A DNA stretch of 64,000 nt from Desulfurococcales archaeon (GTDB lineage Archaea; Thermoproteota; Thermoprotei_A; Sulfolobales; NBVN01). The notes below the pieces were generated by a model. It searched no databases and had not been told where the DNA came from. It saw nothing but the letters and a program-made list of their open reading frames with translations. Below, piece after piece: positions 16,051 to 45,979 of this stretch. The stretch spans positions 196 to 64,195 of the forward strand of contig JALWZB010000052.1 in the NCBI GenBank assembly GCA_027002995.1. Reading direction: 5' to 3'. Positions within the stretch are counted from its first letter, which is position 1. Each line of letters starts with the position of its first letter. The position numbers and the translations under genes were made by a program.

Positions 16051-16084
16051 GCGTTCAACACCAAGAGTTAGGTGGGGTACTGAA

Positions 16085-27971: not shown

Positions 27972-28132
27972 CTCAAATCTCTACACTGGGATGACTAATT
28001 AAAGGTACTACATAAGTAATACAAACGAACGAAGTAAACAGGATTGAAGCACATAACTCAAGAAAGGACACGTTATTTTTAATCATCTCTTGGTAGGAAC
28101 GTTTATATGTAATTATGCCTAAAGAATAGGTA

Positions 28133-28783: not shown

Positions 28784-28910
28784 TTGCTTAGTTTTTAACC
28801 TGACCTCTTAACGTGATGATGATATCGTTATTTTCCTTAAATAACTCAGATACTTAAGCATATCATATCCCTGAGTCCCTTACACGAGCGCTTGGCCCGG
28901 TGACTGAGGT

Positions 28911-29591
28911 ATGGATGAAGCTAGAGAAACAAATGCCGTCCCGACCCACCTCCTCCTCACGACCATCTTAGCACCTATGTTTCCCGTAAGCGTCATTACA
29001 GCCGGTTACGTTGCATACGTTTCATGGAGGCGACGTGACCTTGCCTTCCTTGTTGGGTCGATCGCTTGCGTTGTGCTAGCTGCTCTCAGGAACGTGTTTG
29101 TCGGTGCAGTAGCCGCTACGTCCGTGGCCATGCTTTACTATATTATTAATAGGAGGCTACCTAAGGGTGTTGAGGTAATTCTGTGGATTGCGGCTTGTCT
29201 ATCGCTCACATCCACTTACTTCATGAGGGGTGCATGGGGGCTTCCAGAGTATGTAGCTGGGTTTAGAGCGTGGTGGTCTGGGTCGGCTGGCCAGTCTTCA
29301 CTGGTACCAGCTCATTTTGTCTTAGCGTTCACATCGTTGTCAGTAGCGTATACCTCAGGGCTTAGGGTTAGGGGTGGGAGGTTAGGGATTCTCGCTAATT
29401 ATCTGAGGGAGAATCCGGGTGCTGTACCGGTTATTGCGTTCATGGTGTTGCTTATAATGGCTGCAGGGTGGCTTGCGCTGGGATTAGAGGGAACTGCGAA
29501 TAAGGCGGCAGAGCTTGCGTACTACTTCCTAGTTGCTGGAGTCGCGCTTCAACTTTACGCAACCCTTAAGGAGGGTGAGGCGGAGGATTGA
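28911..29591 (+). CDS. integral membrane protein (226 aa), unknown function
   Basis: ORF with multiple hydrophobic segments; its stop overlaps the start of the next ORF. Confidence 0.65.
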   Translation: MDEARETNAVPTHLLLTTILAPMFPVSVITAGYVAYVSWRRRDLAFLVGSIACVVLAALRNVFVGAVAATSVAMLYYIINRRLPKGVEVILWIAACLSLTSTYFMRGAWGLPEYVAGFRAWWSGSAGQSSLVPAHFVLAFTSLSVAYTSGLRVRGGRLGILANYLRENPGAVPVIAFMVLLIMAAGWLALGLEGTANKAAELAYYFLVAGVALQLYATLKEGEAED

Positions 29592-31153: not shown

Positions 31154-31239
31154 TGAGAGCCTATAAGGAAGCGTCATCCTTTAATAATCCCACCCTTAAT
31201 ATTTCTCTTTGAATAAGTTCTGAGGAGGAGGGACAGGGA

Positions 31240-31566
31240 GTGAGTAAAGATCAAGTAGTTGGGGCTGGCTTAGTTGCGGTTTCCATAGCTGTAATCGTGG
31301 TTTACGTGTGGCTCGTGTTTTTCCCTCCATGGGCTGGGATTGACTTAATTGTGCTGAAGTTAACCGGGGCAATAGCGGTTGCAGGAGTCTTCGGGATCCT
31401 AGCGTGGATAGGGTACACCCTAGCAACCACGCCTCCGCCGAAACCCATTGAGGAGATTGAGAAGGAGCTGGAGGAGGAGCTGAAGAGGCTGGAGAAGGAG
31501 TTAGAAAGTGGTGAAAGCACGTCAACACCCCCTACTGGGCAGGCAGGTGGTGAGGAGGGAAAGTAA
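31240..31566 (+). CDS. small two-TM protein with acidic coiled-coil tail
   Basis: 108-aa ORF; two hydrophobic segments, then PPPKPIEEIEKELEEELKRLEKELESGE. Confidence 0.55.
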   Translation: MSKDQVVGAGLVAVSIAVIVVYVWLVFFPPWAGIDLIVLKLTGAIAVAGVFGILAWIGYTLATTPPPKPIEEIEKELEEELKRLEKELESGESTSTPPTGQAGGEEGK

Positions 31567-31803
31567 GCCCTTAATGTTCCCCTACCACTTTTTCGGTGTC
31601 TCCATAACCTTTAGGTTTACTGAGGAGGGGCATTGATTAGGTGATTACCTAGTAATGTTACCTTAACTAACGAGCATGAAACTAGCGTAGAAGCTCACAA
31701 GAGGTCTTTTGGAAGAACTCGAAGTGAGTGCACCACGGTGTCCATAAGGGAGCAAGTTAAACTATAATTCCACTCCACTAGAATGAATGGAGGCTGAATT
31801 CGC

Positions 31804-32418
31804 GTGAGTGGGTCTGGGAAGAGCAGGTCTTACTTTGTACACCCTACTGCCATCGTTGAGGAGGGAGCTGAGATAGGTGAGGGGACGAGGATATGGCACT
31901 TTGCACATGTACGCACGGGCGCTAAGATAGGGAGGAACTGTAACATAGGTAAGGGCGTGTACATTGATGTTGGTGTCGAGATAGGTGATAGGGTAAAGAT
32001 ACAGAACTTCGTCTCCGTCTACAGGGGAGTTAAGGTTGAGGACGATGTTTTCCTCGGCCCGCACGCCACGCTCACGAACGACCTGTATCCGAGGTCTTTC
32101 AATGAGGATTGGGAGGTCGTGCCGACTCTGATTAAGAAGGGTGCGTCCATAGGTGCGAATGCGACGATCGTGTGTGGTGTGACTATAGGGGAGTATGCGA
32201 TGGTTGGTGCTGGGGCGGTCGTCACTAGGGACGTGCCTCCGCACGCCCTAGTTTACGGGAATCCTGCACGTGTTAGGGGTTTCGTGTGTTACTGTGGTAG
32301 ACCGTTAGACTTGAGTAAGCCTGTTAAGGAGGATGAGGAGGCGGTGACGTTCAGGTGCACGCACTGCGGGAAGGAGGTGAGGATACCTAGGAAGCACCTA
32401 GCACTCCTTGAGAGGTAG
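31804..32418 (+). CDS. sugar N-acetyltransferase, left-handed beta-helix (WbpD/WlbB-like) with C-terminal zinc ribbon
   Basis: 204-aa ORF; hexapeptide repeats ([45 protein letters not shown]), GNPARVRGF, then CYCG...CTHCG. Confidence 0.85.
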
Positions 32419-32424
32419 TGAGTA

Positions 32425-33366
32425 GTGAGGGTAGTTGTCACTGGCGGTGCTGGTTTCATAGGGCACCACATAGTTGCGAAGTTAGTGGGGCGAGGTCATG
32501 AGGTAGCCGTTATAGACAACCTTTCAAGACCCTCTCCGGGAGGGTTAGCGATACTCAAGCAACTCAACGTAGACCTGCTTAAGGTAGACATAACGGACTA
32601 CGCCGCAATGCTTGAAGCCCTAAACCGCTTGAGGCCCGACGCGGTAGTGCATTCGGCCGCATTAATAGATGTTGCTGAGAGCGTTGAGAAGCCGCACACG
32701 TACATGCACGTCAACGCGGAAGGAACGGCCGCGGTGGCTAGGGCCGCAATTAGCGCTGGCGTAGAGAAGGTGATCTACCTGAGTTCGGCCGCGGTGTACG
32801 GTGTCCCGAAGTACCTACCCATAAATGAGGAGCACCCGACGAAGCCAATATCACCTTACGGAGCTTCGAAGCTCGCGGGGGAGCTCGTCCTCGAGAGCTT
32901 TATGGAAAGCTTGGGGAAGCCTAAATACGTTATCTTACGCTTATTCAACGTGTACGGTCCGGGGCAAAATCCCTCAAGCCCTTACTCTGGAGTCATAACG
33001 AAGTTCATCCACGCAGTGACGAGCGGGAAGGAAATAGTAATATATGGTGACGGTGAGCAGAGCCGGGACTTCATACATGTTGAGGATGTGGTGGAGGCGG
33101 TGATTAAGGCGCTAACCGCTACTGAAGCGTGCGTAACCCTAAACATAGGGACGGGAATGAGAACGACTATCAACGAGCTAGCTAAGTTGGTAATGAGCGT
33201 GGCGGGGAGGGAGGTTCCGGTTAGGCACGCCCCGCCCAGGAAGGGTGACATAAGGCACAGTGTCGCGTCGGTGGAGAGGGCCAGGAAGGTATTGGGGTGG
33301 GAGCCTAGGATAGGGCTTGTTGAGGGGCTAAGGACGCTTCTCAAGGTCACCGACACCCAGCACTAG
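32425..33366 (+). CDS. NAD-dependent nucleotide-sugar epimerase/dehydratase (GalE-like SDR)
   Basis: 313-aa ORF; VVVTGGAGFIGHH Rossmann motif, catalytic YGASK. Confidence 0.9.
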   Translation: MRVVVTGGAGFIGHHIVAKLVGRGHEVAVIDNLSRPSPGGLAILKQLNVDLLKVDITDYAAMLEALNRLRPDAVVHSAALIDVAESVEKPHTYMHVNAEGTAAVARAAISAGVEKVIYLSSAAVYGVPKYLPINEEHPTKPISPYGASKLAGELVLESFMESLGKPKYVILRLFNVYGPGQNPSSPYSGVITKFIHAVTSGKEIVIYGDGEQSRDFIHVEDVVEAVIKALTATEACVTLNIGTGMRTTINELAKLVMSVAGREVPVRHAPPRKGDIRHSVASVERARKVLGWEPRIGLVEGLRTLLKVTDTQH

Positions 33367-34722
33367 TAGCCTGCCCTCAACGCTGTAGCTAACATCGTCG
33401 TGGAGCACATTAACGGCGTCAACGATCAGTGGCTCACGCCCGGAGAACTCGGTTATGCTGGACACCTTAAGCCCCCTGTAAGCTGAGTGCCTAACACATA
33501 CGATTACCAGTAATGAGTCCTTGAGGGCCTCACGTAGGTTGTTGGTTAAGCCCACACCTAACTCACTAAAGTAGTCATCCTTAGCCACGAGTGGGTCGTG
33601 CACGATAATGTCCCTATACCCCTTACTGAGGAGGGCGGAAACCACGCCATGTGTCGGTGATAAGCGTGGGTCGTCGATGTTCCCTCTGAAGGCATCGCCA
33701 AGGACAGCTACCCGCACATCCCTAGGCTTCAGTCCATGCTTAACCACAAGCCTGTGGGCTAAGTCAGCGACGATCGAGGGCATGGACTCGTTAATGATTC
33801 TAGCAAGCCTCGTTAACTCCATCGGGACCCCAACCTTCATTGCCTCACCCATCAGGAAGTATGGATACGAGGGTATGCACGGCCCACCCACGCCGGGGCC
33901 TGGCAGGAGTAGGTGGCAGTAAGGCTGAGTGTTAGCTGCCTCCATAACCTCGTAGTAGTTAACGCCTAGTGCTTGGGCCGCTAAGGCAAGCTCATTAGAA
34001 AGCGCTATCACTACGTCCCTATACACCCCCTCAGCAAGCTTCTCGAACTCCGCCGCGATCGTCGAGGAAAGCCTCACGACGCCCTTACGAGCGACTAGCG
34101 AGTAGAGGCGCGCTACCGCGTCAAGGCTGTGGGGACCAATTCCAGCCACGATCTTGGGGTAGTTCTCCTCAATGTCCCTTAAAGCTCTGCCAACGTAAAC
34201 GCGCTCCGGACTGTAGGCGAGGAGAAAGTCCTCCTCAGCTCTTAACCCACTTATGGATTCAAGGACCGGTCTAGCGACACGCTCAGTAGTGCCTGGCGGT
34301 GCGCTGGACTCGATCACCACTAGGTCTCCGGCGCTTAGCCCCTCACCCACGGATGTTACTGCGTCAATGAAAGCATCGAACCTCACAGTCCTGTGGCTCC
34401 AGTCGAAGTGTATAGGGACCGTAACTACCTTAACCCTTGATTGACGGGACGCCTCGACAGCATCACTCGTTAATTTCAAGGTACCTACCTTAAGACCTTC
34501 AGCAATAGCCTCCCTGACCTCTGCTTCAAAGAACTTCACACGGCCCTCTCGAATGTCATTTAGCTTACTCCTATCAATATCGACGCCGATTACCCGCAGA
34601 CCACGTCTGAGGAAAGCCGCGGTTAATGCCCTGCCGACGTACCCCATGCCGTAAATAGCTATCCACGCCTCCCCACTAATGACTGCGTCCACCGGGTCAC
34701 GGTTGCTTACGCTCAATATCAA
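33328..34722 (-). CDS. UDP-sugar 6-dehydrogenase family (UDP-glucose / UDP-N-acetylhexosamine dehydrogenase)
   Basis: 464-aa ORF; IAIYGMGYVGRALT, GPGVGGPCIP catalytic Cys region. Confidence 0.88.
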   Translation of the reverse strand: MILSVSNRDPVDAVISGEAWIAIYGMGYVGRALTAAFLRRGLRVIGVDIDRSKLNDIREGRVKFFEAEVREAIAEGLKVGTLKLTSDAVEASRQSRVKVVTVPIHFDWSHRTVRFDAFIDAVTSVGEGLSAGDLVVIESSAPPGTTERVARPVLESISGLRAEEDFLLAYSPERVYVGRALRDIEENYPKIVAGIGPHSLDAVARLYSLVARKGVVRLSSTIAAEFEKLAEGVYRDVVIALSNELALAAQALGVNYYEVMEAANTQPYCHLLLPGPGVGGPCIPSYPYFLMGEAMKVGVPMELTRLARIINESMPSIVADLAHRLVVKHGLKPRDVRVAVLGDAFRGNIDDPRLSPTHGVVSALLSKGYRDIIVHDPLVAKDDYFSELGVGLTNNLREALKDSLLVIVCVRHSAYRGLKVSSITEFSGREPLIVDAVNVLHDDVSYSVEGRLLVLGVGDLEKRP

Positions 34723-34815: not shown

Positions 34816-35361
34816 ATGAAGTGCATAGAGAAAGGCTTAGTCGCGTGGTTCACGGGGCTCCCCGCAAGCGGTAAGACGACCGTGGCTTCCCTAGTTAAGG
34901 AGGAGTTAAGTAAGGCGGGGTATAGGGTGGAGCTCCTAGACGGGGACTGGGTCAGGAAAACAATAAACGTTGGGGCCGGCTTCACGAAGGAGGAGAGGGA
35001 ACGCCACCTCCTCAGGGTCGCATGGATAGCGAGGCTACTAGCGAGGAACGGCGTGATAGTTCTATGTAGCTTCGTGTCGCCCTACAGGGACGTGAGGAAG
35101 AAAATCAAGGACATTATAGCTGAGGAGGTCCCCTTCCTGGAAATCTGGGTTAAGTGTAGTGTCGAGGAATGCATAAGAAGGGATCCGAAGGGGCTCTACA
35201 AGAAGGCCTTGAAAGGGGAGATACAGCACTTCACAGGCATAAGCGACCCATACGAACCGCCGGAGAACCCTGACTTAGTAATAGACACTGAGCACGATCC
35301 GCCAGAGAAGAATAAGGAGGCTGTGCTCAACCTACTTAGGAAGCACGGGATCGAGATTTAA
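34816..35361 (+). CDS. cysC: adenylylsulfate (APS) kinase
   Basis: 181-aa ORF; WFTGLPASGKTTVA P-loop, LDGDWVRK, SFVSPYRDVR. Confidence 0.93.
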   Translation: MKCIEKGLVAWFTGLPASGKTTVASLVKEELSKAGYRVELLDGDWVRKTINVGAGFTKEERERHLLRVAWIARLLARNGVIVLCSFVSPYRDVRKKIKDIIAEEVPFLEIWVKCSVEECIRRDPKGLYKKALKGEIQHFTGISDPYEPPENPDLVIDTEHDPPEKNKEAVLNLLRKHGIEI

Positions 35362-35432
35362 GTCCGGGGCAATGTTTTCTTGACCGCTTCTTCAGGCATC
35401 CCGTACATGAGCCTTCTCCGCGACATTAAGAG

Positions 35433-35448
35433 TAATTATTTTTAATTA
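35433..35448 (+). promoter_or_regulatory. AT-rich palindromic 16-mer upstream of TSUP-1 (copy 1)
   Basis: TAATTATTTTTAATTA, followed by two ATAATTAT copies (35452-35459, 35462-35469); 14 of 16 identical to 36627-36642. Confidence 0.35.
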
Positions 35449-36255
35449 GTGATAATTATAGATAATTATGGGGAGAGAATGCTGTTAGAGCCAGTATCGC
35501 TAGCGTGGACCGCGACCCTAATCACCTTAGCACTAGTGACACAGTACGTCAGTGGCGTCATAGGGATGGGGTACGGGACAATCTTAACGCCAGTACTCAT
35601 ACTTCTAGGGGTTGACCCGCTCAACGCTATTTCTTCGGTAGTTGCTTCCCAGCTAGCGGGGAACTCTGTGCTCTCCCTTATGCATCATAGGTTTGGGAAC
35701 GCCGACCTAAGGCCGGGAGGCGAGGAATCGAGGCGAGCCATAATACTGGGGGTCTCAGGGATAGTGGGTCCGCTTGTTGCTGTGATCCTTATGCTACACA
35801 TGCCGGTGAACTTGCTTAAGGCCTACGTAGCCATCTTAATGCTATCCATGAGCGCTCTGGTCGTGTTGAGCAGGAGGGTCAGGGTTAAGTACTCGACTAA
35901 GAAGCTTTTCCTCATAGCCGCTATTGCCAGTTTCAACAAGGGATTAACTGGTGGTGGGTACGGCCCCGTAGTGACTGCTGGGCAACTAATACTGGGGGTT
36001 GATCCGAAGTCGGCAGTTGCTGTCACGTCTATGGCAGAATTCATAACTGAGGTAACCGCAGTTACCCTGTATGGGCTTGCCGGGCTACTTAATCCAGCAC
36101 TCATAGCGCCGATGACCGCCGGAACAGTGCTGAGCGCGCCGTTGGTAGCCAAGACCGTTAAGGTCGCGCCAAACACGACTTTAAGGAAGGTCATAGCGGC
36201 AGGCATGACTTTCCTGGCCTTAGCCGTGCTCGTAAAGGCACTCACCGTAGTGTGA
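35449..36255 (+). CDS. TSUP (TauE/SafE, DUF81) family anion permease
   Basis: Polytopic ORF; two-repeat TSUP topology and Gly-rich TM1 (VSGVIGMGYGTILTPVL); the likely real start is ATG 35479 (MLLEPV). Confidence 0.78.
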   Translation: MIIIDNYGERMLLEPVSLAWTATLITLALVTQYVSGVIGMGYGTILTPVLILLGVDPLNAISSVVASQLAGNSVLSLMHHRFGNADLRPGGEESRRAIILGVSGIVGPLVAVILMLHMPVNLLKAYVAILMLSMSALVVLSRRVRVKYSTKKLFLIAAIASFNKGLTGGGYGPVVTAGQLILGVDPKSAVAVTSMAEFITEVTAVTLYGLAGLLNPALIAPMTAGTVLSAPLVAKTVKVAPNTTLRKVIAAGMTFLALAVLVKALTVV

Positions 36256-36331
36256 GGAGTGCGTCTCCCAACATTAAGCTAGTACTGCGTGTTCATGCAA
36301 ACACTCTTATTGGGAGCAATTCCTCATTAGA

Positions 36332-36562
36332 TTGAGGGCTAATGAGATGGGTGAGGAAACCGTAAGTATTGAGATATCGAAGGAGCTCTATGAGAAGGTG
36401 AAGAAGTATATTGAGGAGAACGGGGGCTTCTCCTCAGTAAGGGAGTTCGTTGAGTTCGTCATTAACGAGGTACTCTCAACTGAGGAGGAAGCTGGTACTG
36501 GTTACACTAAGGAAGAGGAGGAGAAGGTTAAGGAGAGGCTCAGATCCTTAGGGTACCTGTGA
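36332..36562 (+). CDS. small ribbon-helix-helix (CopG-like) protein, paralog 1
   Basis: VSIEISKELYEKVKKYIEENGGFSSVREFVEFVINEVL, acidic linker, tail KERLRSLGYL; likely start ATG 36347. Confidence 0.68.
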   Translation: MRANEMGEETVSIEISKELYEKVKKYIEENGGFSSVREFVEFVINEVLSTEEEAGTGYTKEEEEKVKERLRSLGYL

Positions 36563-36626
36563 GGGCACGTAGTTAAAGTAATACGCTAGCTTTTTAGGAA
36601 TAACTTTCTGCTCAATTAATTACGGG

Positions 36627-36642
36627 TAATTATATTTAATTG
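36627..36642 (+). promoter_or_regulatory. AT-rich 16-mer upstream of RHH-2/sat (copy 2)
   Basis: TAATTATATTTAATTG, about 29 nt upstream of TTG 36671. Confidence 0.35.
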
Positions 36643-36670
36643 CTACTGCAACTTATTCCCGGGTGCCCAC

Positions 36671-36916
36671 TTGCCGGAGGGAGAGAGGAAAAGCGGTAGA
36701 AGCCGCTACACCACGGTCTCAATACCCGTGACGTTGTATAATAGGATAAAGAAACTCATAGAGGGTACGGGCTTCGCTAATGTTTCCCAGTTCGTTACCT
36801 ATGTACTCAGGGAAGTTGTTGTTGAGTATGAGAGGGCTCGTGAGGCTGAGGAGCCGTTCACCGAAGAGGAAAAGGAGAAGATTATTGAGAAGCTCCGTAG
36901 GTTAGGCTACATTTAA
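36671..36916 (+). CDS. small ribbon-helix-helix (CopG-like) protein, paralog 2
   Basis: TVSIPVTLYNRIKKLIEGTGFANVSQFVTYVLREVV, acidic linker, tail IEKLRRLGYI; 14 nt upstream of sat. Confidence 0.68.
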   Translation: MPEGERKSGRSRYTTVSIPVTLYNRIKKLIEGTGFANVSQFVTYVLREVVVEYERAREAEEPFTEEEKEKIIEKLRRLGYI

Positions 36917-36930
36917 GGAGGTGGTGCGGG

Positions 36931-38079
36931 ATGGTGTCTAAACCGCATGGGGGTAGGTTAGTTAACAGAGTTGCTAAGGGGAGAAGGAGAGAAGCCCTCC
37001 TCGAGGAGGCGAAGGAGCTTCACAGTATTGAGGTAACAAAGAATACGGCGTCAGATATCCACAACATAGCGTATGGTGCGTACTCACCCCTCCAGGGATT
37101 CCTGCTTAGGGAGGACTACGAACACGTACTCTACGATATGAGGTTGTCGGACGACACGCCCTGGACCATACCCATAGTACTCGACGTACGCAAGGATGAG
37201 ATCCAAGGAGTCAAGGAAGGTGATGACGTGGCCTTAACGCACGAGGGTCAGATCCTAGCCGTCATGAAGGTCGAGGAGATTTACGAGTGGGATAAGAAGG
37301 AGTTCGCTAGGCACGTGTTTAAGACTGAGGACCCCAACCACCCCGGTGTTGCCCGCACGTACGCCCGTAAGGAACTACTGATTGGGGGCCCGATAGATCT
37401 GCTTAACCCGCTGAAACACCCCTTCGACAGATACGCGCTCACACCGCTTGAGACGAGGGTGCTGTTCAAAGAGAAGGGGTGGAGAACCATAGTGGCGTTC
37501 CAGACACGTAACGTGCCGCACTTAGGGCATGAGTACGTCCAGAAGGCTGCCTTAACATTCGTTGACGGCCTCCTAATCCACCCATTAGTGGGGTGGAAGA
37601 AGCCCGGCGACTTCAAGGACGAGGTCATAGTGGCTGCTTACGAGGCACTAATCAAGCACTACTACCCGAAGGACTCGGTCGTGTTCTCCGTGCTCTGGAT
37701 GCAGATGAGGTACGCAGGACCTAGGGAAGCAATACACCACGCGATAGTTAGGAAGAACTTTGGCTGCACACACTTCATCGTGGGCAGGGACCACGCCGGC
37801 GTAGGTAATTACTACGGACCGTACGAGGCGTGGGATCTCTTCAACGAGTTCCCCGACCTAGGCATAACGCCGCTATTCATACGTGAGTCATTCTACTGCA
37901 AGAAGTGTGGAGGCATGGTAAACGCTAAGATCTGCCCGCACAGCGACGAATTTAGGGTGAGGATAAGCGGGACCAAACTCAGGAAAATGATAAGGAATAA
38001 GGAGAAACCACCGGAATACATGATGAGGCCGGAGGTAGCGGAGGTTGTCCTCAGCTTCGACAACCCGTTCGTCACTTAG
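36931..38079 (+). CDS. sat: sulfate adenylyltransferase (ATP sulfurylase)
   Basis: 382-aa ORF; QTRNVPHLGHEY, VGRDHAGVGNYYG, C-terminal Cys cluster CKKCG...CPH. Confidence 0.95.
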   Translation: MVSKPHGGRLVNRVAKGRRREALLEEAKELHSIEVTKNTASDIHNIAYGAYSPLQGFLLREDYEHVLYDMRLSDDTPWTIPIVLDVRKDEIQGVKEGDDVALTHEGQILAVMKVEEIYEWDKKEFARHVFKTEDPNHPGVARTYARKELLIGGPIDLLNPLKHPFDRYALTPLETRVLFKEKGWRTIVAFQTRNVPHLGHEYVQKAALTFVDGLLIHPLVGWKKPGDFKDEVIVAAYEALIKHYYPKDSVVFSVLWMQMRYAGPREAIHHAIVRKNFGCTHFIVGRDHAGVGNYYGPYEAWDLFNEFPDLGITPLFIRESFYCKKCGGMVNAKICPHSDEFRVRISGTKLRKMIRNKEKPPEYMMRPEVAEVVLSFDNPFVT

Positions 38080-39139
38080 GGAAATCCCCGCATGCTCTGA
38101 GTTTATTGAGGGGGTCCTTAGGGAGGGTAGGAAGGTTTACGTGCTACATCACTGGGATGCTGACGGCGTGGCGTCCGCAGCAATACTCCTGCGGGTGCTG
38201 GGACCCCGCATAGTGGGTATGAGCACGCCTAAGATAGGTGTGTATGGGGCAAGCGCCCTGAACCTCAATGAGATTAAGAAGAGCGGAGCTGACGCCCTGG
38301 TGGTGTTGGATTATGGGGCACGCCCCGACGAGGTGTTAGCGCGAGTGCCTCAGGGGCTTCAGACATTCATCGTTGATCACCACGCTGTTGAGTTAAGCTA
38401 TAATGCTCGGGAACGCTGCTGTAACCCCGTAGCACTAGGCATGGGCGAGGCCGAGTACCCCTCAACCACGTGGGTGCTCTACGAACTCCTCAACACACCC
38501 TCTGACATCGTTGATTTAGTGGCGCTAGGTATTGTTGGAGACCTTGGGCCAGCACTCGCTACGAGCGAGCACGTGACGTTTGTTGATAACGTTGCTGCTG
38601 AGCTCAACATGACCCTCAACGACTTCGTTAGGGCGGCTGAACTCATAGACTCTTGCTACAGGATTATGAACAGCGAGTGTATCGAGCACGCGGTTCAAGT
38701 GCTTGCAGAGGAGGGTGTTAAAGGTGTTTTACATGACGAAGTATTAATTAATGCTCATGAGTCAGCGTCACGTTACGTTGATAGTGCCTACGACCGTCTC
38801 CAAAGCCTTGAAGAACCCTGTCCCGGTGTGAAGCTATGGAAGTTAAGCCTAGACTCCCTAGTGACTTCATACGTTGGAAGGTCGCTAGCACGCGCGTACC
38901 CGGACAACGTGATCTTACTAGCGCACAATATACCGTCGCTCAACGTGACGTACGTGTATGTCAGAAGCTATTCCGTACCGCTGAGGAGGTTCCTTGAGAA
39001 GCTGAGAGAGGAGGGACTGAGCGTGGGTGGTAAGGACATGGTGTTCGTGGTGACGTGCTCCGAGGGAGAGGACTGTGATGAGGTGCTAAGTAAAATAACC
39101 ACACATTTATGCCGTGACCTAAGTAGGGAGGGGCAGTAG
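38045..39139 (+). CDS. DHH-family phosphoesterase (candidate pAp phosphatase / nanoRNase-like)
   Basis: 364-aa ORF; LHHWDADGVAS and FIVDHH motifs; TTG 38045 has GGAGGT 8 nt upstream; 35-nt overlap with the sat 3' end. Confidence 0.72.
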   Translation: MSSASTTRSSLREIPACSEFIEGVLREGRKVYVLHHWDADGVASAAILLRVLGPRIVGMSTPKIGVYGASALNLNEIKKSGADALVVLDYGARPDEVLARVPQGLQTFIVDHHAVELSYNARERCCNPVALGMGEAEYPSTTWVLYELLNTPSDIVDLVALGIVGDLGPALATSEHVTFVDNVAAELNMTLNDFVRAAELIDSCYRIMNSECIEHAVQVLAEEGVKGVLHDEVLINAHESASRYVDSAYDRLQSLEEPCPGVKLWKLSLDSLVTSYVGRSLARAYPDNVILLAHNIPSLNVTYVYVRSYSVPLRRFLEKLREEGLSVGGKDMVFVVTCSEGEDCDEVLSKITTHLCRDLSREGQ

Positions 39140-39141
39140 AT

Positions 39142-40491
39142 TTGAGGAAAGTGTTCGTGCTTGGGCTGGACTCGGCACCGCCGAAAACCCTATATGAGAG
39201 GTACGGTGTCGACATTCCTGCGTTGGGCTCCCTCATAGATGACTCCAGAAGGTGGTTAATGCGCACCTGCCACCCGCCAATAACGATACCGGCGTGGCTA
39301 GTGATGTTCACCGGTAAGACTCCTGGAGAGCTAGGCATTTACGGGTTCAGGCATAGGAAGCCTGGGGACGTTGGACACACCTACATAATAAACTCGAACT
39401 TCATTAAGCACCAGACATTATGGGATACCGTCGGCCGCGCTGGCGGCCGCGTAGGGATTTTCGGGGTGCCCCCAACATACCCGCCAAGGCCCGTGAGGGG
39501 CTTCATGATAACGGACTTCATGACTCCTGGCCCGGAAAACCAGTACGCGTTCCCGCCGTGGCTTAAGCGTGAGCTAGAGTCGAGGTTCGGACCACTCATA
39601 TTCGACGTGAAGTTCAGGAGGCATGATAAGGAGAGGGTTAGGGACGAACTCTTCCAGATGACTAGGCAGCACCTGAAGATAATCGAGTACCTAGTTAAGC
39701 GCAAAGCGTGGGACCTCTTCATATACGTTGAGATAGGTATTGATAGAATACACCACGCCTTCTGGAAGTACTTCGACGTCTCCCACCCTAGGTACGAGGA
39801 GAACGAGGAGCTATCACGTGTGATCCCCGACTACTACAAGTTAATAGACGAGGGATTCGAGAGGATCAGGAAAGCATTGCCGAAGGACACGATAATAGTT
39901 GTTGCGTCCGACCACGGCGTTAAGTCAATGGCCGGCGCGTTCGCCGTGAACGAATGGCTCATTAAGGAGGGGTACCTGAAGCTGAAGGAGAAGCCGAAGA
40001 AGCCCGGCACTGACCTAACCAGAGAGATGATTGACTGGGACTCAACAATAGCTTGGGGCTGGGGAGGCTACTACTCACGCATCTTCATCAACCTAAAGGG
40101 CAGAGAACCGAAAGGAATTGTCGGTAGGGAAGAATTCGATGACATCATAACGCAACTCTCCAACGACTTACGGAGAGTGAAAGGCGATAATGGCGCGTTA
40201 TGGCGCAACATAGTGCTTAGACCAGAGGAAATATACCCTGAAGTGCGGGGTGACCCGCCTGACCTGATGGCGTACTTCGACGATCTAAGCTGGCGCGCTG
40301 CTGGAACCGTTGGGTGGGACACTCCGTTCCTTCCGGAGAACGATAGGGGGCCTGACGACGCGGTTCATGACTGGCATGGCGTGTTCACGGTCTACGACCC
40401 TGAAGGGACGGTGTCTCGCGGGATGGGTGGTGAGATGCCTATAGAGCGCATAGCTGATTACTTGAGGGAACTGATACTCTCTAAATCCTAA
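39142..40491 (+). CDS. alkaline-phosphatase-superfamily hydrolase (type I phosphodiesterase / nucleotide pyrophosphatase family)
   Basis: 449-aa ORF; VFVLGLDSAPP, PPITIPAW (candidate Thr nucleophile), VVASDHG; starts 2 nt after the DHH gene stop. Confidence 0.78.
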   Translation: MRKVFVLGLDSAPPKTLYERYGVDIPALGSLIDDSRRWLMRTCHPPITIPAWLVMFTGKTPGELGIYGFRHRKPGDVGHTYIINSNFIKHQTLWDTVGRAGGRVGIFGVPPTYPPRPVRGFMITDFMTPGPENQYAFPPWLKRELESRFGPLIFDVKFRRHDKERVRDELFQMTRQHLKIIEYLVKRKAWDLFIYVEIGIDRIHHAFWKYFDVSHPRYEENEELSRVIPDYYKLIDEGFERIRKALPKDTIIVVASDHGVKSMAGAFAVNEWLIKEGYLKLKEKPKKPGTDLTREMIDWDSTIAWGWGGYYSRIFINLKGREPKGIVGREEFDDIITQLSNDLRRVKGDNGALWRNIVLRPEEIYPEVRGDPPDLMAYFDDLSWRAAGTVGWDTPFLPENDRGPDDAVHDWHGVFTVYDPEGTVSRGMGGEMPIERIADYLRELILSKS

Positions 40492-40545
40492 AGGCGATTT
40501 CAATGCAGGTTTAACTCAACCACTAAGTAAGCGGGTGCATGCGCC

Positions 40546-41319
40546 ATACATTGGTTAACGTACGTTGCCTACGCCGGCATCGCCGTTGCTATATCCTTGC
40601 TCTCCTCCATGGCCGGAATTGGGGGCGGGGTATTCATGGTCCCCCTATTCTACTTCTTAGGGCTAGGAATGAGCAACGCCGTGGGAACCAGCAAGTTCGT
40701 AATCACCTTCATAAGCTTCGTGAGTATGGTGAGCTACTTAAGAAGTGGTAAGGTGAACTACCGCGTAGGGCTAGTGGCTCTCGCAACAATGATACCATCA
40801 TCATACGTTGGCGCCTGTCTTTCAGGGCTCCTGAACTCATCGATACTGAAGTTCATCGTCGGTTCATTCATAATGATCTACAGCCTCAGACTCCTCTCCA
40901 CGTACATCAGGAAGAAAGTGAGAAAGGAAGGGGAGGGAAACGACTATGGCACCAGCCCATCACTAAGCACGTTACTTAGGTGCGCCTTCGTAGGCCTCAT
41001 AGCAGGCTTCATAGCAGGAATAACAGGGACGGCGGGCGGCTCCGTGAACATGCCGCTCTACACCACGGTTTTAGGTATGCCCATACACAACGCCGTGGCT
41101 ACGTCGTTCTTCACGATATTCCCCACAGCAGTGATAGCTACAACCCAACACATACTCCATGGCGAGGTAATTTACAATGTCGCTATACCTTTCGTTACTG
41201 GGTCGCTTGTAGGTGCGTCCATAGGGTCCCGGCTGGCGGTTAAGATGAAGCCTCAAACACTCAGGTTAATTATCGGTTGCGTGCTTCTCGTAACGTCCGT
41301 TAAGATGTTGTTACCGTGA
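40546..41319 (+). CDS. TSUP (TauE/SafE) family anion permease, second copy; 5' end unresolved
   Basis: MAGIGGGVFMVPLFYFLG signature. TM1 (WLTYVAYAGIAVAISLLSS) is encoded upstream of the first canonical in-frame start TTG 40597. The frame is open from 40531; ATA 40546 has GGGTG 8 nt upstream. Confidence 0.72.
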   Translation: MHWLTYVAYAGIAVAISLLSSMAGIGGGVFMVPLFYFLGLGMSNAVGTSKFVITFISFVSMVSYLRSGKVNYRVGLVALATMIPSSYVGACLSGLLNSSILKFIVGSFIMIYSLRLLSTYIRKKVRKEGEGNDYGTSPSLSTLLRCAFVGLIAGFIAGITGTAGGSVNMPLYTTVLGMPIHNAVATSFFTIFPTAVIATTQHILHGEVIYNVAIPFVTGSLVGASIGSRLAVKMKPQTLRLIIGCVLLVTSVKMLLP

Positions 41320-41459: not shown

Positions 41460-43817
41460 TCAAGCGCTGCATAGCACGCTTAGCGGTACAGTGAAGTAAA
41501 TTACGCCATCCTCAACCCTAGCGTCAACCCTTACCCCATTAAGGCTTACTTCCCTAATCACTCCTGAACTGAATACCTTGAACACCACGTCCTTTATTTC
41601 AGGTGAGTACCTCAAGGATTTTGGCTCTGTGCTTACCTTTAGCATGTCCTCACGCTTCCTGAGGGTCACAGCTAGTTCGAAGTACTCGCCGTTAAGGCTC
41701 TCGCCATCATCATCGTAGATAATTACCTCGGCATCATGATTAACGAAGGACTCAACATATAGCGGATCCCACACTTCATGCGCTGTCCGTTTGGGATCCG
41801 TGGTTATGACGGCTGTGTCCTCCCTAATGAATAAGGGAATCCTGTCTAAGGGAGCGTTAACGAGTTTCCAACCCGGTTCAAGAACTTCGCCTGTCCAGTA
41901 ATTAACCCACTTAACCACCGGTAAGTACGCCGCCCTAGCCTCCTTCCCTGGGGCCGTCACTGGCGCCACGAGTAATGACTTACCAACCATGAATTCATCG
42001 CTTATGGTGTAGGACCGCTCATCCTCGGGGAACTCCAGAAAGAGTGCACGCATGACTGGCTTACCGCTCCTGCTAGCTTCAACAAATACGCTGTAGATAT
42101 ATGGTAGGAACCTGTACCTCAACTTAATGGCATCAGCTATTAGCTTCTCCCACTCAGGACCGAAGACCCACGGTTCTTGTCTTCGCGTACCTTTACTGCT
42201 GTGGTTCCTGAAGAATGGGTAGAAGGCGCCTAACTGCGTCCATCTTAGGAGGAGTTCCGGTTCTGTGTCACCCTCGAAGCCTCCTACGTCCGCGCCGACG
42301 AAGTGAAGTCCACTTAAACTCATATTCAATAATATAGGTATTGAGATAGAGAGGTGTTCCCAGCATGACTGATTATCTCCTGACCATACCGCCGCGTACT
42401 TCTGTATGCCAGCGTAGGCCCCCCTACTGAGGATGAACCACCTGCTTCCGGGGCTATGCTTCTTGAATGCTCGGAGGGTTGCTTCCGCCTCTAATAGCGG
42501 GTACGCGTTGTGAATGCTGTCATGATGCACCTTAAGCCCGTTACCAGTCTCATGGACGGCGTCTATTCGCGGCACACCCAGCCAGGGCCATCCGTACGTG
42601 GAGATCAGTGCTGGGGCATTGCGAAGAAGTTCGCCAAGCTCGTGCGTTCTGCCCTCACTCAGTAGAGCACTCGCTTTCCTGACCACGGACTCGACGTCGC
42701 TTACCTTGTAAAATATTGCCGGTTCATTCATGTCTAACCAAATGCCGCTAACACCCTTTGAGAGCAACTCACACGCTACCAGCTCTCCCCACCACTCACG
42801 CACGTCCTCACGAAGGAAGTCTGGGAACACACATACCCCCGGCCACACACCACCGCGGAATAGTTCGCCGTTAGGGGTCTTCATGAATGCGTTGATCGCC
42901 ACGCCTTCCTCAAACACTCTGTACCCTCGCTCCTCCTTAACACCTACGTCCAGTATCGTTACCAGTCGAATGCCTAGCTTACGTAACTCCTTAGCTAGCT
43001 TCTCAGGCTCCCTGAAATCCCTACTCCACGTGAATATCCTGTACCCTTCCATGTAGTCTATATCAAGGTGTATGGCGTCGCAAGGTATGCCTCTCTCCCT
43101 GAAGGCCCTAGCTATGTTGAGGACCTCCTCTGAACTCATGTAGCTGTACCTGCTTTGGTGATAGCCTAACGCCCACTTAGGCGGTAAGTAAGGCTTCCCG
43201 GTTAGGGATGTGTACGCCTCGATAACCTCTAACGGGTTCCTGCCAGCCATTACGTAAGCTACTAACGCATCACCGTAGATTGAGGTCCTCACCAGACCCG
43301 GGGACCTAGCACCTACGTCAATCTCTGCGTACCCCGTGTGGTTTACGAATACGCCAAGGTACCTTCCAGGCTTTAGTGCTAAGTAGAAGGGGATTGACGC
43401 GTACATCGGCTCCCCCAGCGGAAGATGAACTGGCTGGTCAACGTTCCATAGCCTGTACGTCCTCCCCCGCCTATCGAGTGGACCATATTTCTCGCCTAAG
43501 CCATAAATGTGTGAGTCCCCCACATAATGCTCGAGTACAAGCATGCCGTCCTTTGGGGACGTGACGCTGAGTTCTGTTAATGCCTTGCCCTCCCAAGCTA
43601 TCTTGAGGCTTGCTTCCTCGATCCTCACATCCCAAGCCCTGACCGTGCGTTGAGCGCTTGTTACAGTAGTTGCTGGTATTAGCTTTAGTAATTCCTCAAG
43701 TTTTCTTAATGATTCTTCACGCCCTTCACGGCACGCGCTTATCTTGAGGATGTTGTTACTTAGAGGTTTGTAAGTGAGGCGCACTGCTTCTTTCCTGAAG
43801 GTCCCCTCGTTTATCAA
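41460..43817 (-). CDS. GH31 alpha-glucosidase
   Basis: 785-aa ORF; GIWLDMNEPA catalytic nucleophile region, WSGDN motif. Confidence 0.9.
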   Translation of the reverse strand: MINEGTFRKEAVRLTYKPLSNNILKISACREGREESLRKLEELLKLIPATTVTSAQRTVRAWDVRIEEASLKIAWEGKALTELSVTSPKDGMLVLEHYVGDSHIYGLGEKYGPLDRRGRTYRLWNVDQPVHLPLGEPMYASIPFYLALKPGRYLGVFVNHTGYAEIDVGARSPGLVRTSIYGDALVAYVMAGRNPLEVIEAYTSLTGKPYLPPKWALGYHQSRYSYMSSEEVLNIARAFRERGIPCDAIHLDIDYMEGYRIFTWSRDFREPEKLAKELRKLGIRLVTILDVGVKEERGYRVFEEGVAINAFMKTPNGELFRGGVWPGVCVFPDFLREDVREWWGELVACELLSKGVSGIWLDMNEPAIFYKVSDVESVVRKASALLSEGRTHELGELLRNAPALISTYGWPWLGVPRIDAVHETGNGLKVHHDSIHNAYPLLEAEATLRAFKKHSPGSRWFILSRGAYAGIQKYAAVWSGDNQSCWEHLSISIPILLNMSLSGLHFVGADVGGFEGDTEPELLLRWTQLGAFYPFFRNHSSKGTRRQEPWVFGPEWEKLIADAIKLRYRFLPYIYSVFVEASRSGKPVMRALFLEFPEDERSYTISDEFMVGKSLLVAPVTAPGKEARAAYLPVVKWVNYWTGEVLEPGWKLVNAPLDRIPLFIREDTAVITTDPKRTAHEVWDPLYVESFVNHDAEVIIYDDDGESLNGEYFELAVTLRKREDMLKVSTEPKSLRYSPEIKDVVFKVFSSGVIREVSLNGVRVDARVEDGVIYFTVPLSVLCSA

Positions 43818-43856
43818 GAGGGATGTTCACCTCCCCCAATGTGTTGATAGGGTTTG

Positions 43857-44795
43857 TCAGTGTTTCTGCGTTGTTAGGACATACTCGAGTATGCCGCGTA
43901 GGGCTGTCTTGGCAGAGTTCCTGAATATGGGGTTATTCTCGCGGGCAGCCATTATCTTAGCTACTTCGGGATCCTCCTTAAGGATTATCTCGAACACTGC
44001 GCTAGGGTCCGTTAAGCCTTTCCTTACCGCGTTCTCCACTATGTTTAACCACCGCAGTATCTTGTTCTTTGCTTTCTCGAGGGCTTCTTCACCCCGCCAC
44101 GGCAGGATCCCATAGTGTGAGACTGTCACTACGTTAGGGCGTTCCTCCTTAATCTTCTCAATGCTTGCTAGCGCTAGGTCTGCCTGGAAGGGTGGTGGGG
44201 TGACGGGGTGTAGCTTGCCATCGTGGTGAATGGCTAACGCGTCGCCAGTCACCGCAACTGAGTCGGGGATCACTATGTATGCTACGTGGTGTGGTGCGTG
44301 GCCTGGCGTGTATATCGCCTTGACCTTAACGTCCCCTAAGTCGATTATCTCGCCGTCCTCCACGCCACGCACGTACTTAGGGTCTATGGGTTCCGGCTTA
44401 CCCATGGCGTTCGCCCTTTCCTCCCCAAGCACTGTTAGTGCTGATGACCACAGCTTCGTTGGGTTGACGACGTGTTTGACACCGCGGGGGTGAACTAGGA
44501 TCTCTCCCTCGTATCCTTCATTGATTAGGGTTTTGAGGAGTGAGGCTGCGGCGCCCCCATGGTCTAGGTGTATGTGGGTCAGTGCCACGAAGAGCTTCCT
44601 AACGTTATTACTGCTTAGCAGTGGCCTAAGTTCTGTTATCAGGTTCCTCAATCCCGTCATTGCTCCGGCATCAATTAGTGCCGCCTTGCCTTCACCCACA
44701 ACTAGGTAAACCCCTATCAACTGAGGCACACCCAAGGGCTTCGTGTCTATCAAGTAAACGTGGTTAGTCACTTTCTCCGCACTCACCCTGATCAC
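43857..44795 (-). CDS. metallo-beta-lactamase superfamily hydrolase
   Basis: 312-aa ORF; LTHIHLDHGG metal-binding motif, TPGHAPHH. Confidence 0.85.
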   Translation of the reverse strand: MIRVSAEKVTNHVYLIDTKPLGVPQLIGVYLVVGEGKAALIDAGAMTGLRNLITELRPLLSSNNVRKLFVALTHIHLDHGGAAASLLKTLINEGYEGEILVHPRGVKHVVNPTKLWSSALTVLGEERANAMGKPEPIDPKYVRGVEDGEIIDLGDVKVKAIYTPGHAPHHVAYIVIPDSVAVTGDALAIHHDGKLHPVTPPPFQADLALASIEKIKEERPNVVTVSHYGILPWRGEEALEKAKNKILRWLNIVENAVRKGLTDPSAVFEIILKEDPEVAKIMAARENNPIFRNSAKTALRGILEYVLTTQKH

Positions 44796-44797
44796 CT

Positions 44798-45979
44798 CTA
44801 GATTTTTGCGAACGCCTTGCCTAAATCCTCTATTAAGTCGTTGACGTCCTCCAGCCCGACGGAGAGCCTTAGTAGCGTGTCCTTAATGCCTAACTCCTCC
44901 CTAACGTCTGGCGGTATGTACTTGGCTGCGGAGGCACTTGCTATGGATATCAGTGATTCAGGCCCGCCTAGGCTTGGTGACGGTGTGATTACCTTAAGTT
45001 CCTTAAGGAACCTTATGATCGAGTCCCTACCACCGCGCGGGACGAAGCTAACTACGGCGCCGTAAAGCTTCGTGCGGAATATCTTATTGGCTATGCTGTG
45101 GTAGGGACTGCTAGGCAGTCCGGGGTACATAACGTCCTCAACTTTCGGGTGATCCAGGAGATATTCTGCTATGGCTCTAGCGTTCTCGCATTGCTTAACG
45201 AACCTCACCCGCAATGTCTTAATCCCACGTATCGTTAGGTACGCCTCGAAGGGCTGCATTACGGTCCCCAACATCCTACGCCAATCCCAGAGATCCTGGA
45301 TGACGGCGCTTGATGCCGCCACCGCGCCCCCGATAACATCGTTATGCCCGGCTAAGTACTTCGTGAGGCTATGGATCGTCGCTGAGGCACCATAGTCCTT
45401 AGGATGCAATAGAATAGGGGTGGTGAAAGTATTGTCAACAACTAATGTAGTGTCTCCACGGTCTCGCACGACCCTCGATATTCTATCCAAATCTATTACC
45501 TTCAGCGTCGGGTTACTCATAACTTCCAAGAAAACCACAGTTTTTACTGCCCTGTCGTCACCCTCTAACGCGTCTATTATCGCATCAGCAGAGGGCCAGA
45601 CCTTGATGACGTCAAACCCCATCTTCCCGGATAGCGACTCCAGAAGCTGAAGGGTGGTGCTATACATCTCTAGCGGCACGATCAACCTGCAACCTGGCTC
45701 AAGAACCCTTAACATTAACGTAGATATTGAAGCCATCCCACTCGAGAAGGCTAGGGCGTCATCGTAACCCTCTAACGACGCGATCACACGCTCCAGGGCC
45801 CGTACGGTTGGTGTCTCTTCCCGAGCGTATTTAATTACCTTACCCCTATCGCTCACCATAGCATGCTCCTCGTCTAGGTACCTGTAAACAGTGCTGAGGT
45901 ACACTGGCGTAACTACTGAACCAAACTGCTCTTCACTCCACTTCCACCCATGCACAGCACTCGTATCATCCCTAACCAC
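44798..45979 (-). CDS. PLP-dependent Cys/Met metabolism enzyme (cystathionine gamma-synthase/lyase or O-acylhomoserine sulfhydrylase family)
   Basis: 393-aa ORF; HSLTKYLAGHNDV with the PLP lysine, LGGPESL. Confidence 0.87.
   Translation of the reverse strand: MVRDDTSAVHGWKWSEEQFGSVVTPVYLSTVYRYLDEEHAMVSDRGKVIKYAREETPTVRALERVIASLEGYDDALAFSSGMASISTLMLRVLEPGCRLIVPLEMYSTTLQLLESLSGKMGFDVIKVWPSADAIIDALEGDDRAVKTVVFLEVMSNPTLKVIDLDRISRVVRDRGDTTLVVDNTFTTPILLHPKDYGASATIHSLTKYLAGHNDVIGGAVAASSAVIQDLWDWRRMLGTVMQPFEAYLTIRGIKTLRVRFVKQCENARAIAEYLLDHPKVEDVMYPGLPSSPYHSIANKIFRTKLYGAVVSFVPRGGRDSIIRFLKELKVITPSPSLGGPESLISIASASAAKYIPPDVREELGIKDTLLRLSVGLEDVNDLIEDLGKAFAKI

Follow-up and report, generated by a model that had tools for sequence, protein, structure and literature searches.

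We describe a cassette of eight genes in a 64-kb stretch of DNA from a Desulfurococcales archaeon (contig JALWZB010000052.1; the whole stretch is referred to as the window). The cassette combines the sulfate-activation genes sat and cysC with genes for an alkaline-phosphatase-superfamily enzyme (hereafter AP), a DHH phosphoesterase, two small ribbon-helix-helix (RHH)-like proteins, and two TSUP permeases. It is very probably a sulfation system that makes 3'-phosphoadenosine 5'-phosphosulfate (PAPS), clears the by-product 3'-phosphoadenosine 5'-phosphate (pAp), and is controlled by the RHH proteins. Within this system, we give an even chance to the proposal that AP is the missing sulfotransferase.

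The original prediction for this DNA had listed the genes as cysC, TSUP-1, RHH1, RHH2, sat, DHH, AP, and TSUP-2. All eight open reading frames (ORFs) are present in the window ORF list in that order, on the + strand from 34816 to 41319, and their families were confirmed, with the RHH identity of the two small proteins remaining sub-threshold. What that reading missed is the core module RHH-sat-AP-cysC and the RHH pair with its conserved operator.

A conserved cassette with AP as the steadiest partner of sat

One genome was taken per GTDB species, which gave 80 loci, and neighbors were assigned by tblastn with the window proteins and by all-against-all clustering of 1133 ORFs. Linkage was counted in the 34 loci whose flanks reached 4 kb or more upstream and 2.5 kb or more downstream of AP, a neighbor being a gene within 6 kb of AP. 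By this measure, sat accompanied AP in 29 of the 34 well-flanked loci, cysC in 26, and an RHH protein of any kind in 28 (an RHH1 homolog in 27). DHH was present in 15/34, and a TauE (TSUP) permease in 3/34 by tblastn (7/27 in the clustering subset). AP was the tightest-linked and most constant partner of sat in these loci, with which it keeps a 1:1 relation, and many carriers show sat-AP-cysC without intervening genes. RHH2 precedes sat in most loci, as judged by tblastn. Because of these counts, we define the core module as RHH2-sat-AP-cysC plus RHH1, with DHH and TSUP as accessory members.

The order cysC-(TauE)-small-small-sat-DHH-AP was kept in three contexts in which DHH identity is just 35-42%. 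As the arrangement recurs in dozens of species-level genomes, it lies far beyond chance, and conservation of gene order in relatives, a point raised in the original prediction, is evident. AP orthologs with this linkage are 49-76% identical and span several phyla. Carriers were found in Thermoproteota (on whose side they include Desulfurococcales, Pyrodictiaceae, Acidilobaceae, and Thermofilaceae), Nitrososphaerota, Methanomethylicia, Culexarchaeia (Culexmicrobium), and Njordarchaeota; the association of AP with sat and cysC extends over at least five archaeal phyla and also into some bacteria. Hyperthermus butylicus, Pyrodictium delaneyi, Pyrolobus fumarii, and Pyrofollis japonicus have proteins with 60-62% identity to the window AP, and the nearest genome, a hydrothermal Desulfurococcales metagenome-assembled genome, encodes an AP that is 99% identical. 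Stetteria hydrogenophila likewise has an AP or RHH2 homolog. The GC content of the cassette (0.51-0.535) is like that of the remainder of the window, which rules out a compositional island.

Sulfate activation and removal of pAp

Families in the window were called with Pfam and NCBIfam, and gene starts were adjusted from calls on identical public contigs, in which three starts are shorter (TSUP-1, 35479; RHH1, 36347; TSUP-2, 40636). Sat (36931-38079, +) belongs to the homo-oligomeric ATP sulfurylases (ATPS), which turn ATP and sulfate into adenosine 5'-phosphosulfate (APS) with release of pyrophosphate (PPi). It matches PUA_2 (E = 1.5e-58) and ATP-sulfurylase (1.3e-95), scores 567 bits against NF003166 (cutoff, 387) and 427 bits against TIGR00339 (cutoff, 323), and carries the motifs QTRNVPHLGH and GRDHAG. 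CysC (34816-35361, +) belongs to the APS kinases (APSK), which turn APS and ATP into PAPS and ADP; it matches PF01583 (5e-58) and TIGR00455 (200.9 bits; cutoff, 138.7), and its translation holds the P-loop GLPASGKTT and an LDGD motif. Family scores above the curated cutoffs uphold the earlier view that Sat and CysC make PAPS; homology shows the two proteins to be the putative sources of APS and of PAPS, respectively. Both permeases, TSUP-1 (35479-36255, +; PF01925, 3e-29) and TSUP-2 (40636-41319, +; 4e-50), exceed the PF01925 gathering score of 32.6 bits (102.7 and 171.2 bits, respectively), and sulfate is their predicted substrate for import. TSUP-2 was found in close relatives only.

The DHH gene (38045-39139, +; PF01368, 9e-10) had been proposed to encode a pAp phosphatase of the NrnA type. 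The predicted activity gains support, and the type does not hold. The best solved relative is MtPAPP of Methanothermococcus thermolithotrophicus (PDB 8a8k), which the single sequence matched at an E value of 3.7e-17 and a 22-member family profile matched at 2e-59 over the full length (query 15-343, chain residues 12-332). The match of the profile to NrnA was weak and partial (5.5e-4), and RecJ and NrnA align to the N-terminal DHH domain only, much more weakly than 8a8k. Residues H36, D38, D40, D89, D111-H112-H113, D166, and G328-G329-K330 are invariant in the 22 homologs; the metal-ligand motifs align with HHWDTDG, LD, DHH, and GD of 8a8k, and the DHHA1-like GGK motif is kept. Homology shows the window protein to be a putative pAp phosphatase of the MtPAPP type. 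Its homologs form a small family of 57 clusters, mostly from Thermoproteota, and DHH identity among the Thermoproteota relatives is ~35-42%. MtPAPP itself catalyzes fast, Mn-stimulated, PAP-specific hydrolysis; its structure has been solved, and 168 archaeal homologs have been described (Jespersen & Wagner 2023, PMC10322725).

The sulfate-activation locus of M. thermolithotrophicus (ATPS, APSK, MtPAPP, and an APSR-like PAPS reductase; PMC10322725) resembles the cassette in bringing together a stand-alone homo-oligomeric ATPS, an APS kinase, and a PAP phosphatase of the DHH family, the last with metal-binding motifs common to the window DHH. The window cassette differs in lacking a PAPS reductase and in its additional members, which are an AP enzyme, an RHH pair that comes with a conserved operator, and TSUP permeases; its purpose is likely sulfation rather than assimilation.

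AP as a distant NPP-like enzyme

AP (39142-40491, +; PF01663, 3e-41) has neither a signal peptide nor a membrane segment in its translation, which points to a cytoplasmic location. When 14 and, separately, 54 sequences were aligned, residues D10, T48, D201, H205, D257, H258, D406, and H409 were invariant or nearly so. The protein shows the hallmarks of the nucleotide pyrophosphatase/phosphodiesterase (NPP)-like branch of the superfamily, namely, a two-metal site (three Asp and three His), a Thr nucleophile, and the conserved core fold. In the family profile, T48 aligned with the nucleophile Thr of phosphonoacetate hydrolase PhnA, a position marked by the T-to-A mutant entry 3t02. A PDB search with the single AP sequence returned no match. 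The AlphaFold model (pLDDT 92) has an NPP fold and matches NPP5, NPP1, and Xanthomonas NPP (Foldseek TM ~0.57-0.60) at an identity of 12-15%. The position of the NPP Asn that contacts the transferred group is taken by F69 in AP and is followed by a basic cluster, R70-H71-R72; this placement comes from a manual motif alignment (TG..P....G...N of NPP/PhnA versus TGKTPGELGIYGF) and not from a structural superposition. Judged by sequence and model, AP is a catalytically complete, cytoplasmic, distant NPP-like enzyme.

AP has the same fold, the same seven metal ligands, and the same Thr nucleophile as the NPPs (NPP1, NPP3, NPP5, and Xanthomonas NPP) and PhnA. It differs from the NPPs in being cytoplasmic rather than secreted, in its length (449 aa with extra inserts versus ~380 aa), and in its obligate genomic partnership with sat and cysC.

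Natural fusions of AP relatives

An exhaustive search for AP relatives yielded 10,592 representatives, among which were natural fusions Sat-AP (P0196), CysC-AP (P0215), and AP-GT2 (P0186), and also fusions of AP to a pyruvate-kinase (PK) barrel (P0308), to PK and Sat (AP-PK-Sat, P0208), and to a nucleotidyltransferase domain (NTP_transferase-AP, P0260). Residue comparison separated the two sets. The first three carry the signature of the window AP (F69-R70-x-R72, E197, YYxR313, R321-E322, R385, and N400-D401), which is absent from the PK and NTP_transferase fusions; these represent a sister subfamily.

The operon of P0186 reads Sat-CysC-(AP-GT2), and the AP domain is the only candidate in it to sulfate the GT2 product. 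In the Sat-AP fusion P0196 (L085/L086, 8001-10571), the AP domain has SAYG instead of SDHG, so that two metal ligands are gone, and its bacterial cluster contains two canonical sulfotransferase genes (Sulfotransfer_1/3), cysC, a PHP phosphoesterase gene, and an AP paralog with an LGYI tail like that of the RHH proteins described below. Such decay is expected if the transferase job has passed to the canonical sulfotransferases and is unexpected for a helper that removes PPi.

Eukaryotic sulfate-activation fusions (the APSK-ATPS PAPS synthase, ATPS-pyrophosphatase, and the Entamoeba mitosomal pathway) are alike in serving activation for sulfation without reduction. They couple helper enzymes to ATPS, to which the Sat-AP, CysC-AP, and AP-PK-Sat fusions form parallels; the coupled enzyme here is a member of the AP superfamily and not a family I pyrophosphatase.

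Some members of the sister subfamily have gene neighborhoods worth recording. The AP-PK fusion P0308 comes from loci L089-L091, and P0208, with Sat in addition, comes from L084; both L084 and L089 contain Sat together with an RHH-like protein and AP-PK, and cysC is not in view. P0260 (L092) lies inside a phosphonate-glycan cluster with phosphoenolpyruvate mutase and LicD.

A proposed sulfotransferase

In the route that we propose, a conserved, horizontally shared archaeal cassette would both make and use activated sulfate. The TSUP permeases would bring in sulfate, Sat would convert it to APS, and CysC would convert APS to PAPS. AP would be the consumer of PAPS (or APS), a non-canonical sulfotransferase with a two-metal site. 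Its Thr48 would bind the sulfuryl group in a covalent intermediate and then hand it on to a conserved cytoplasmic acceptor, which is likely a sugar in a glycan precursor (nucleotide- or lipid-linked) from the neighboring genes. DHH would destroy pAp, the toxic product left when PAPS gives up its sulfate, and RHH1 and RHH2 would repress by binding TTAATTA-N4-TAATTAA over the promoters of TSUP-1 and of RHH2-sat-DHH-AP.

It had been held earlier that no sulfotransferase is identifiable in the window. The window scan covered all but one (62474-63658) of the ORFs of at least 140 aa, and Pfam found no canonical sulfotransferase (PF00685, PF13469, or PF03567) in them; likewise, phmmer with the two canonical sulfotransferases of L085 as queries found nothing in the 1133 ORFs of the archaeal loci. 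We nevertheless consider AP the best candidate for that role, because it is constantly linked to sat and cysC and its own subfamily is fused to CysC and GT2, because its site has decayed where canonical sulfotransferases exist (P0196), and because the archaeal loci hold glycan genes and no other consumer of PAPS. The logic of a mobile, self-sufficient cassette points the same way, as does a published precedent (PMC11980604).

That precedent is the pair Agl30 (VNG1056C) and Agl31 (VNG1057C), which sulfate the N-linked tetrasaccharide of Halobacterium salinarum and confer sulfation on Haloferax volcanii; PAPS is not mentioned in the paper (Zaretsky et al., mBio 2025, PMC11980604). Both have an alkaline-phosphatase-superfamily core like that of AP, one of them being soluble and cytoplasmic, and both sit in a glycan-biosynthesis neighborhood with genetic evidence for sulfate added to lipid-linked or N-linked sugars and no canonical P-loop sulfotransferase involved. 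They are set apart from AP by Pfam family, being sulfatase-like (PF00884/arylsulfatase), whereas AP is a PF01663 protein with a Thr nucleophile and no PF00884 match, and no linkage of the pair to sat or cysC has been reported. It has also been suggested, for methanogens, that "a non-canonical sulfo-transferase" may be in use in archaea that have ATPS, APSK, and PAP phosphatase and lack a working pathway of reduction (PMC10322725).

Several observations weigh against a sulfotransferase role. The nearest solved folds are those of nucleotide pyrophosphatases, which attack phosphorus and not sulfur, and Agl30/Agl31 lie on the PF00884 branch, with their sulfate donor not established. AP shows the same degree of conservation as Sat and CysC, with 50-60% identity across phyla, and stands 1:1 with sat, so that a small universal substrate would fit it better than a lineage-specific glycan. 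Fusions of the sister subfamily to a PK barrel or to NTP_transferase hint at handling of PPi or adenylates. In L021, a sulfatase-like protein with a Thr in place of the formylglycine motif lies between sat and AP and could be the real transferase. The search for cysH and sir covered the window and related loci only, and a Cys/Met pyridoxal-phosphate (PLP) enzyme is encoded 4.5 kb from the cassette. Finally, we found no enzymology in the literature for any member of the PF01663 subfamily of AP, and the literature on Desulfurococcales documents no sulfated glycan or lipid for the carriers.

Glycan genes and sulfatase-like neighbors

The glycan locus that had been noted beside the cassette is real and spans 26526-34722. 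It includes a weak flippase match, a NeuD-like acetyltransferase gene (31804-32418, +), a GalE-like epimerase gene (32425-33366, +), and an NDP-sugar dehydrogenase gene (33328-34722, -), all upstream of cysC. Glycan genes also recur beside the cassette elsewhere, a homologous GalE-like epimerase in 10 related loci and an Alg13/14-like glycosyltransferase in 10; other recurring neighbors are GT2, a Wzx-like protein, and tandem PF01663 paralogs (22-24% identity). We ruled out a link to sulfoquinovose, as the epimerase is GalE-like (UDP-sulfoquinovose synthase model, 56 bits versus a cutoff of 575) and the nearby GH31 protein is MalA-like.

Cytoplasmic PF00884 "sulfatases" in which a Thr motif (WT[AV]PS or IPTHP) replaces the C/S-x-P-x-R formylglycine motif also recur beside the cassette (L001:13226-14629, L011:17769-19082, L021:1130-2515, L048:2204-3565, and L084:5602-6876). 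Those of L001, L011, L021, and L084 share their Pfam family with Agl30/Agl31, which AP does not, and the likeness is at family level only. These Thr-type proteins may be sulfotransferases of the Agl31 kind.

Within the glycan locus of the window, three ORFs at 28133-31153 (+) and 26526-27971 (-) have no Pfam or NCBIfam match. They encode proteins of 216 aa and 226 aa and a polytopic membrane protein of 521 aa, and they adjoin the weak Polysacc_synt flippase match between ribosomal-protein and nucleotide-sugar genes. They are probably uncharacterized glycan-assembly proteins.

Alternative roles for AP and for the cassette

The main rival to the sulfotransferase proposal, though we consider it unlikely, is that AP helps sulfate activation by hydrolyzing PPi or passing its phosphate to AMP, which would pull the unfavorable reaction of Sat and recycle adenylates; the sulfotransferase would then lie elsewhere, for example, in a Thr-type sulfatase-like protein or an AP paralog, and such AP-superfamily transferase candidates do adjoin the cassette in some loci. 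AP is tied more closely to sat than to cysC, sat-(DHH)-AP is a recurring order, AP is highly conserved, and the R70-H71-R72 cluster at the NPP Asn position (by the manual motif alignment) would suit this role. A Sat-AP fusion exists; however, this sole example has lost two metal ligands, even though its Sat still needs PPi removal. The sister subfamily is fused to a PK barrel with Sat or to an NTP_transferase, which releases PPi, but these fusions lack the signature residues of the window AP, and we down-weighted them as strong evidence of PPi handling by it. The subfamily of the window AP is instead fused to GT2, where no PPi is released, in an operon with just Sat and CysC, and a mobile cassette without a PAPS consumer would give a new host nothing. 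ATPS-inorganic pyrophosphatase fusions of stramenopiles and haptophytes have been explained as pulling the reaction (Patron et al., PMC2275785). To our knowledge, there is no PPi-specific enzyme in the AP superfamily, which counts against the helper role.

A second alternative is plain assimilation, in which PAPS would go to a PAPS reductase and a sulfite reductase encoded elsewhere and AP would be accessory or unrelated. Cultured carriers such as Hyperthermus, Pyrolobus, and Pyrodictium come from sulfide-rich vents, where assimilation of sulfate brings little, which counts against this alternative. The island had been described as free of reductive genes, and our scan agrees, as we found no cysH, sir, aprAB, or dsrAB-type family in the scanned ORFs of the 64-kb window, no reductase among the families recurring in at least 3 of the ~80 related loci (~1 Mb), and no CysH-type ECGLH motif in the 1133 neighboring ORFs. 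Candidates that resembled CysH by PP-loop or ECGLH matches turned out to be TtuA-like, Asn-synthase-like, or AIR-synthase-like proteins, or the GGK motif of DHH. These searches were limited to the window and related loci rather than whole genomes, and a cystathionine-gamma-synthase-family gene at 44798-45979 and a PALP enzyme gene before cysC in L002 would fit assimilation. MtPAPP was characterized in an assimilatory pathway, yet the reductase of M. thermolithotrophicus sits in the same locus as ATPS, APSK, and MtPAPP (PMC10322725). In the cassette, the recurring neighbors are glycan genes. We therefore regard assimilation as improbable, in keeping with the original prediction, which had favored sulfation over assimilation or respiration.

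The third alternative is the one offered for AP in the original prediction, that it cleaves phosphosulfate or phosphoanhydride bonds for recycling. As a nucleotide pyrophosphatase/phosphodiesterase, AP would act on APS, PAPS, or by-products as a recycling step or safety valve, with no sulfotransferase present here. Membership in PF01663, the NPP fold, the AMP-bound NPPs as best structural matches, and the full catalytic set all speak for such chemistry. Making APS or PAPS costs 2-3 ATP, and breaking them right beside the enzymes responsible would nonetheless be futile, yet no partner of sat is more conserved than AP. Moreover, the fusions to GT2 and CysC suggest a productive step, and pAp is already removed by DHH here and by the PHP-domain genes of L084 and L085, which we take, judging by their family, to be pAp phosphatases. 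We judge this reading very unlikely. That AP is itself the pAp phosphatase was ruled out, as DHH (15/34 loci) or PHP-domain genes (L084 and L085) co-occur with it.

An RHH-like pair with a conserved operator

RHH1 (36347-36562, +; the longer ORF starts at 36332) and RHH2 (36671-36916, +; 14 nt upstream of sat) are paralogs of about 75-80 aa with 37% identity. Both contain a strand (YTTVSIP) and two helices, then an acidic linker, and close with a C-terminal helix whose last residues are LGY[IL] (...RLRSLGYL in RHH1 and ...KLRRLGYI in RHH2). Neither has a Pfam match at an E value of 0.01 or less. RHH_1 matched 15 of 26 family members below threshold (best, 2e-4), and the NikR RHH domain aligned with the family at an E value of 0.1. 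The AlphaFold model shows strand-helix-helix with one more helix at the C terminus; the first seven Foldseek matches are RHH proteins throughout, at E values above 1, and the best for RHH2 are the NikR and ParD RHH domains (none significant). RHH2 has 363 homologs, some of them named RHH, CopG, Arc, or MetJ by NCBI or JGI. From sequence and model, the RHH assignment is sub-threshold but consistent, and RHH2 would be the probable operon repressor.

The motif TAATTA-N4-TAATTA occurs 5 times in the window versus 0.06 expected, always within two sites. Site 1 (35433-35468) has four TAATTA hexamers in 10-bp phase and ends 10 nt before the TSUP-1 start codon, directly upstream of that gene; site 2 (36617-36642) has three phased hexamers and lies upstream of RHH2-sat. 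Across the ~1 Mb of related loci there were 31 exact matches versus ~0.2 in simulations, and all 31 fell just upstream of RHH2, TauE, or cysC. The motif stands before cassette genes in 29 related loci, from Thermoproteota, Nitrososphaerota, Culexarchaeia, and Methanomethylicia (loci within L001-L075), and its place directly upstream of RHH2 is conserved across phyla. It also precedes the AP-PK-Sat operon of L084 (L084:7162). The consensus is an 18-bp palindrome, TTAATTAAATTTAATTAA (TTAATTA-N4-TAATTAA). Because sites lie 2-45 nt from start codons, overlap with promoters is expected, and the RHH pair probably binds the palindrome and represses the cassette.

The window proteins share with the CopG/Arc/MetJ/NikR repressors a predicted N-terminal strand-helix-helix, small size, a position at the head of the probable target operon, and a palindromic operator with 10-bp phasing. 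They differ in falling below Pfam thresholds, in their acidic linker and C-terminal helix ending in LGY[ILV], and in the presence of two paralogs per cassette.

A tail made up of an acidic stretch and then RL(R/K)xLGY[ILV] forms the C terminus of all 60 RHH homologs. It was also found on four CysC proteins (L076, L078, L080, and L082) and on 15 of 149 AP-family representatives, including P0215 (CysC-AP), P0308 (AP-PK), and the L085:5079-6671 paralog, and it resembles the ordinary C-terminal helix of CysC. In sequence it looks like a portable docking peptide. A proteasome motif of the HbYX type was dropped, as a Gly precedes the Tyr and several tails have residues beyond it. A wider idea, which we put forward tentatively and hold to be somewhat doubtful, is that AP founds a widespread class of PAPS/APS-dependent sulfotransferases acting through a covalent sulfo-threonine on a two-metal alkaline-phosphatase core, with the tandem paralogs and Thr-type sulfatase-like neighbors as further members that use other acceptors. 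AP would then be the non-canonical sulfotransferase suggested for archaea with ATPS, APSK, and PAP phosphatase that lack a reductase. The LGY tail would moreover dock CysC, transferase, and RHH on a common hub, perhaps Sat, so that enzyme assembly would be coupled to transcription.

Other genes in the window

The trio that follows the cassette at 41460-45979 (-) encodes a MalA-like GH31 alpha-glucosidase (598 bits; cutoff, 800), a metallo-beta-lactamase-fold protein, and the cystathionine-gamma-synthase-family PLP enzyme; it accompanies the cassette in close relatives only (L004 and L093-L097). The remainder of the window is mostly housekeeping, with genes for ribosomal proteins, RNA polymerase, aminoacyl-tRNA synthetases, aIF5B, and EF-1alpha as well as isoprenoid genes. 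The aIF5B/IF-2 gene (8292-11228, +; 978 aa) contains an intein, with Intein_splicing at residues 82-386, before the GTPase domain. An isoprenoid block at 15031-18746 (-) encodes a polyprenyl synthetase, an FMN-dependent dehydrogenase-family (IDI-2-like) protein, and an isopentenyl-phosphate-kinase-like protein of the amino-acid-kinase family, together with a 260-aa ORF without a Pfam match. The Rpo3/D-like subunit of RNA polymerase encoded at 21729-22574 (-) has a 4Fe-4S ferredoxin-type domain as an insertion.

Significance

Many anaerobic, sulfide-bathed archaea have ATP sulfurylase and APS kinase without a reductase, and the fate of their PAPS is an acknowledged open question (PMC10322725). 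We found no paper on the cassette or on the PF01663 subfamily of AP, and the cassette narrows the question of PAPS use to one purifiable 449-residue enzyme. If AP is a sulfotransferase, the range of AP-superfamily sulfotransferases, which were discovered in haloarchaea in 2025, would extend to a second branch of the superfamily, the sulfation chemistry of the superfamily would be linked to PAPS, and sulfated glycans or lipids would be predicted in Desulfurococcales, Pyrodictiaceae, Thermofilaceae, and others. If AP is instead a PPi/adenylate helper, it would represent a new way to drive sulfate activation. Either way, the RHH/operator pair is a newly recognized, cross-phylum archaeal regulatory system to study.

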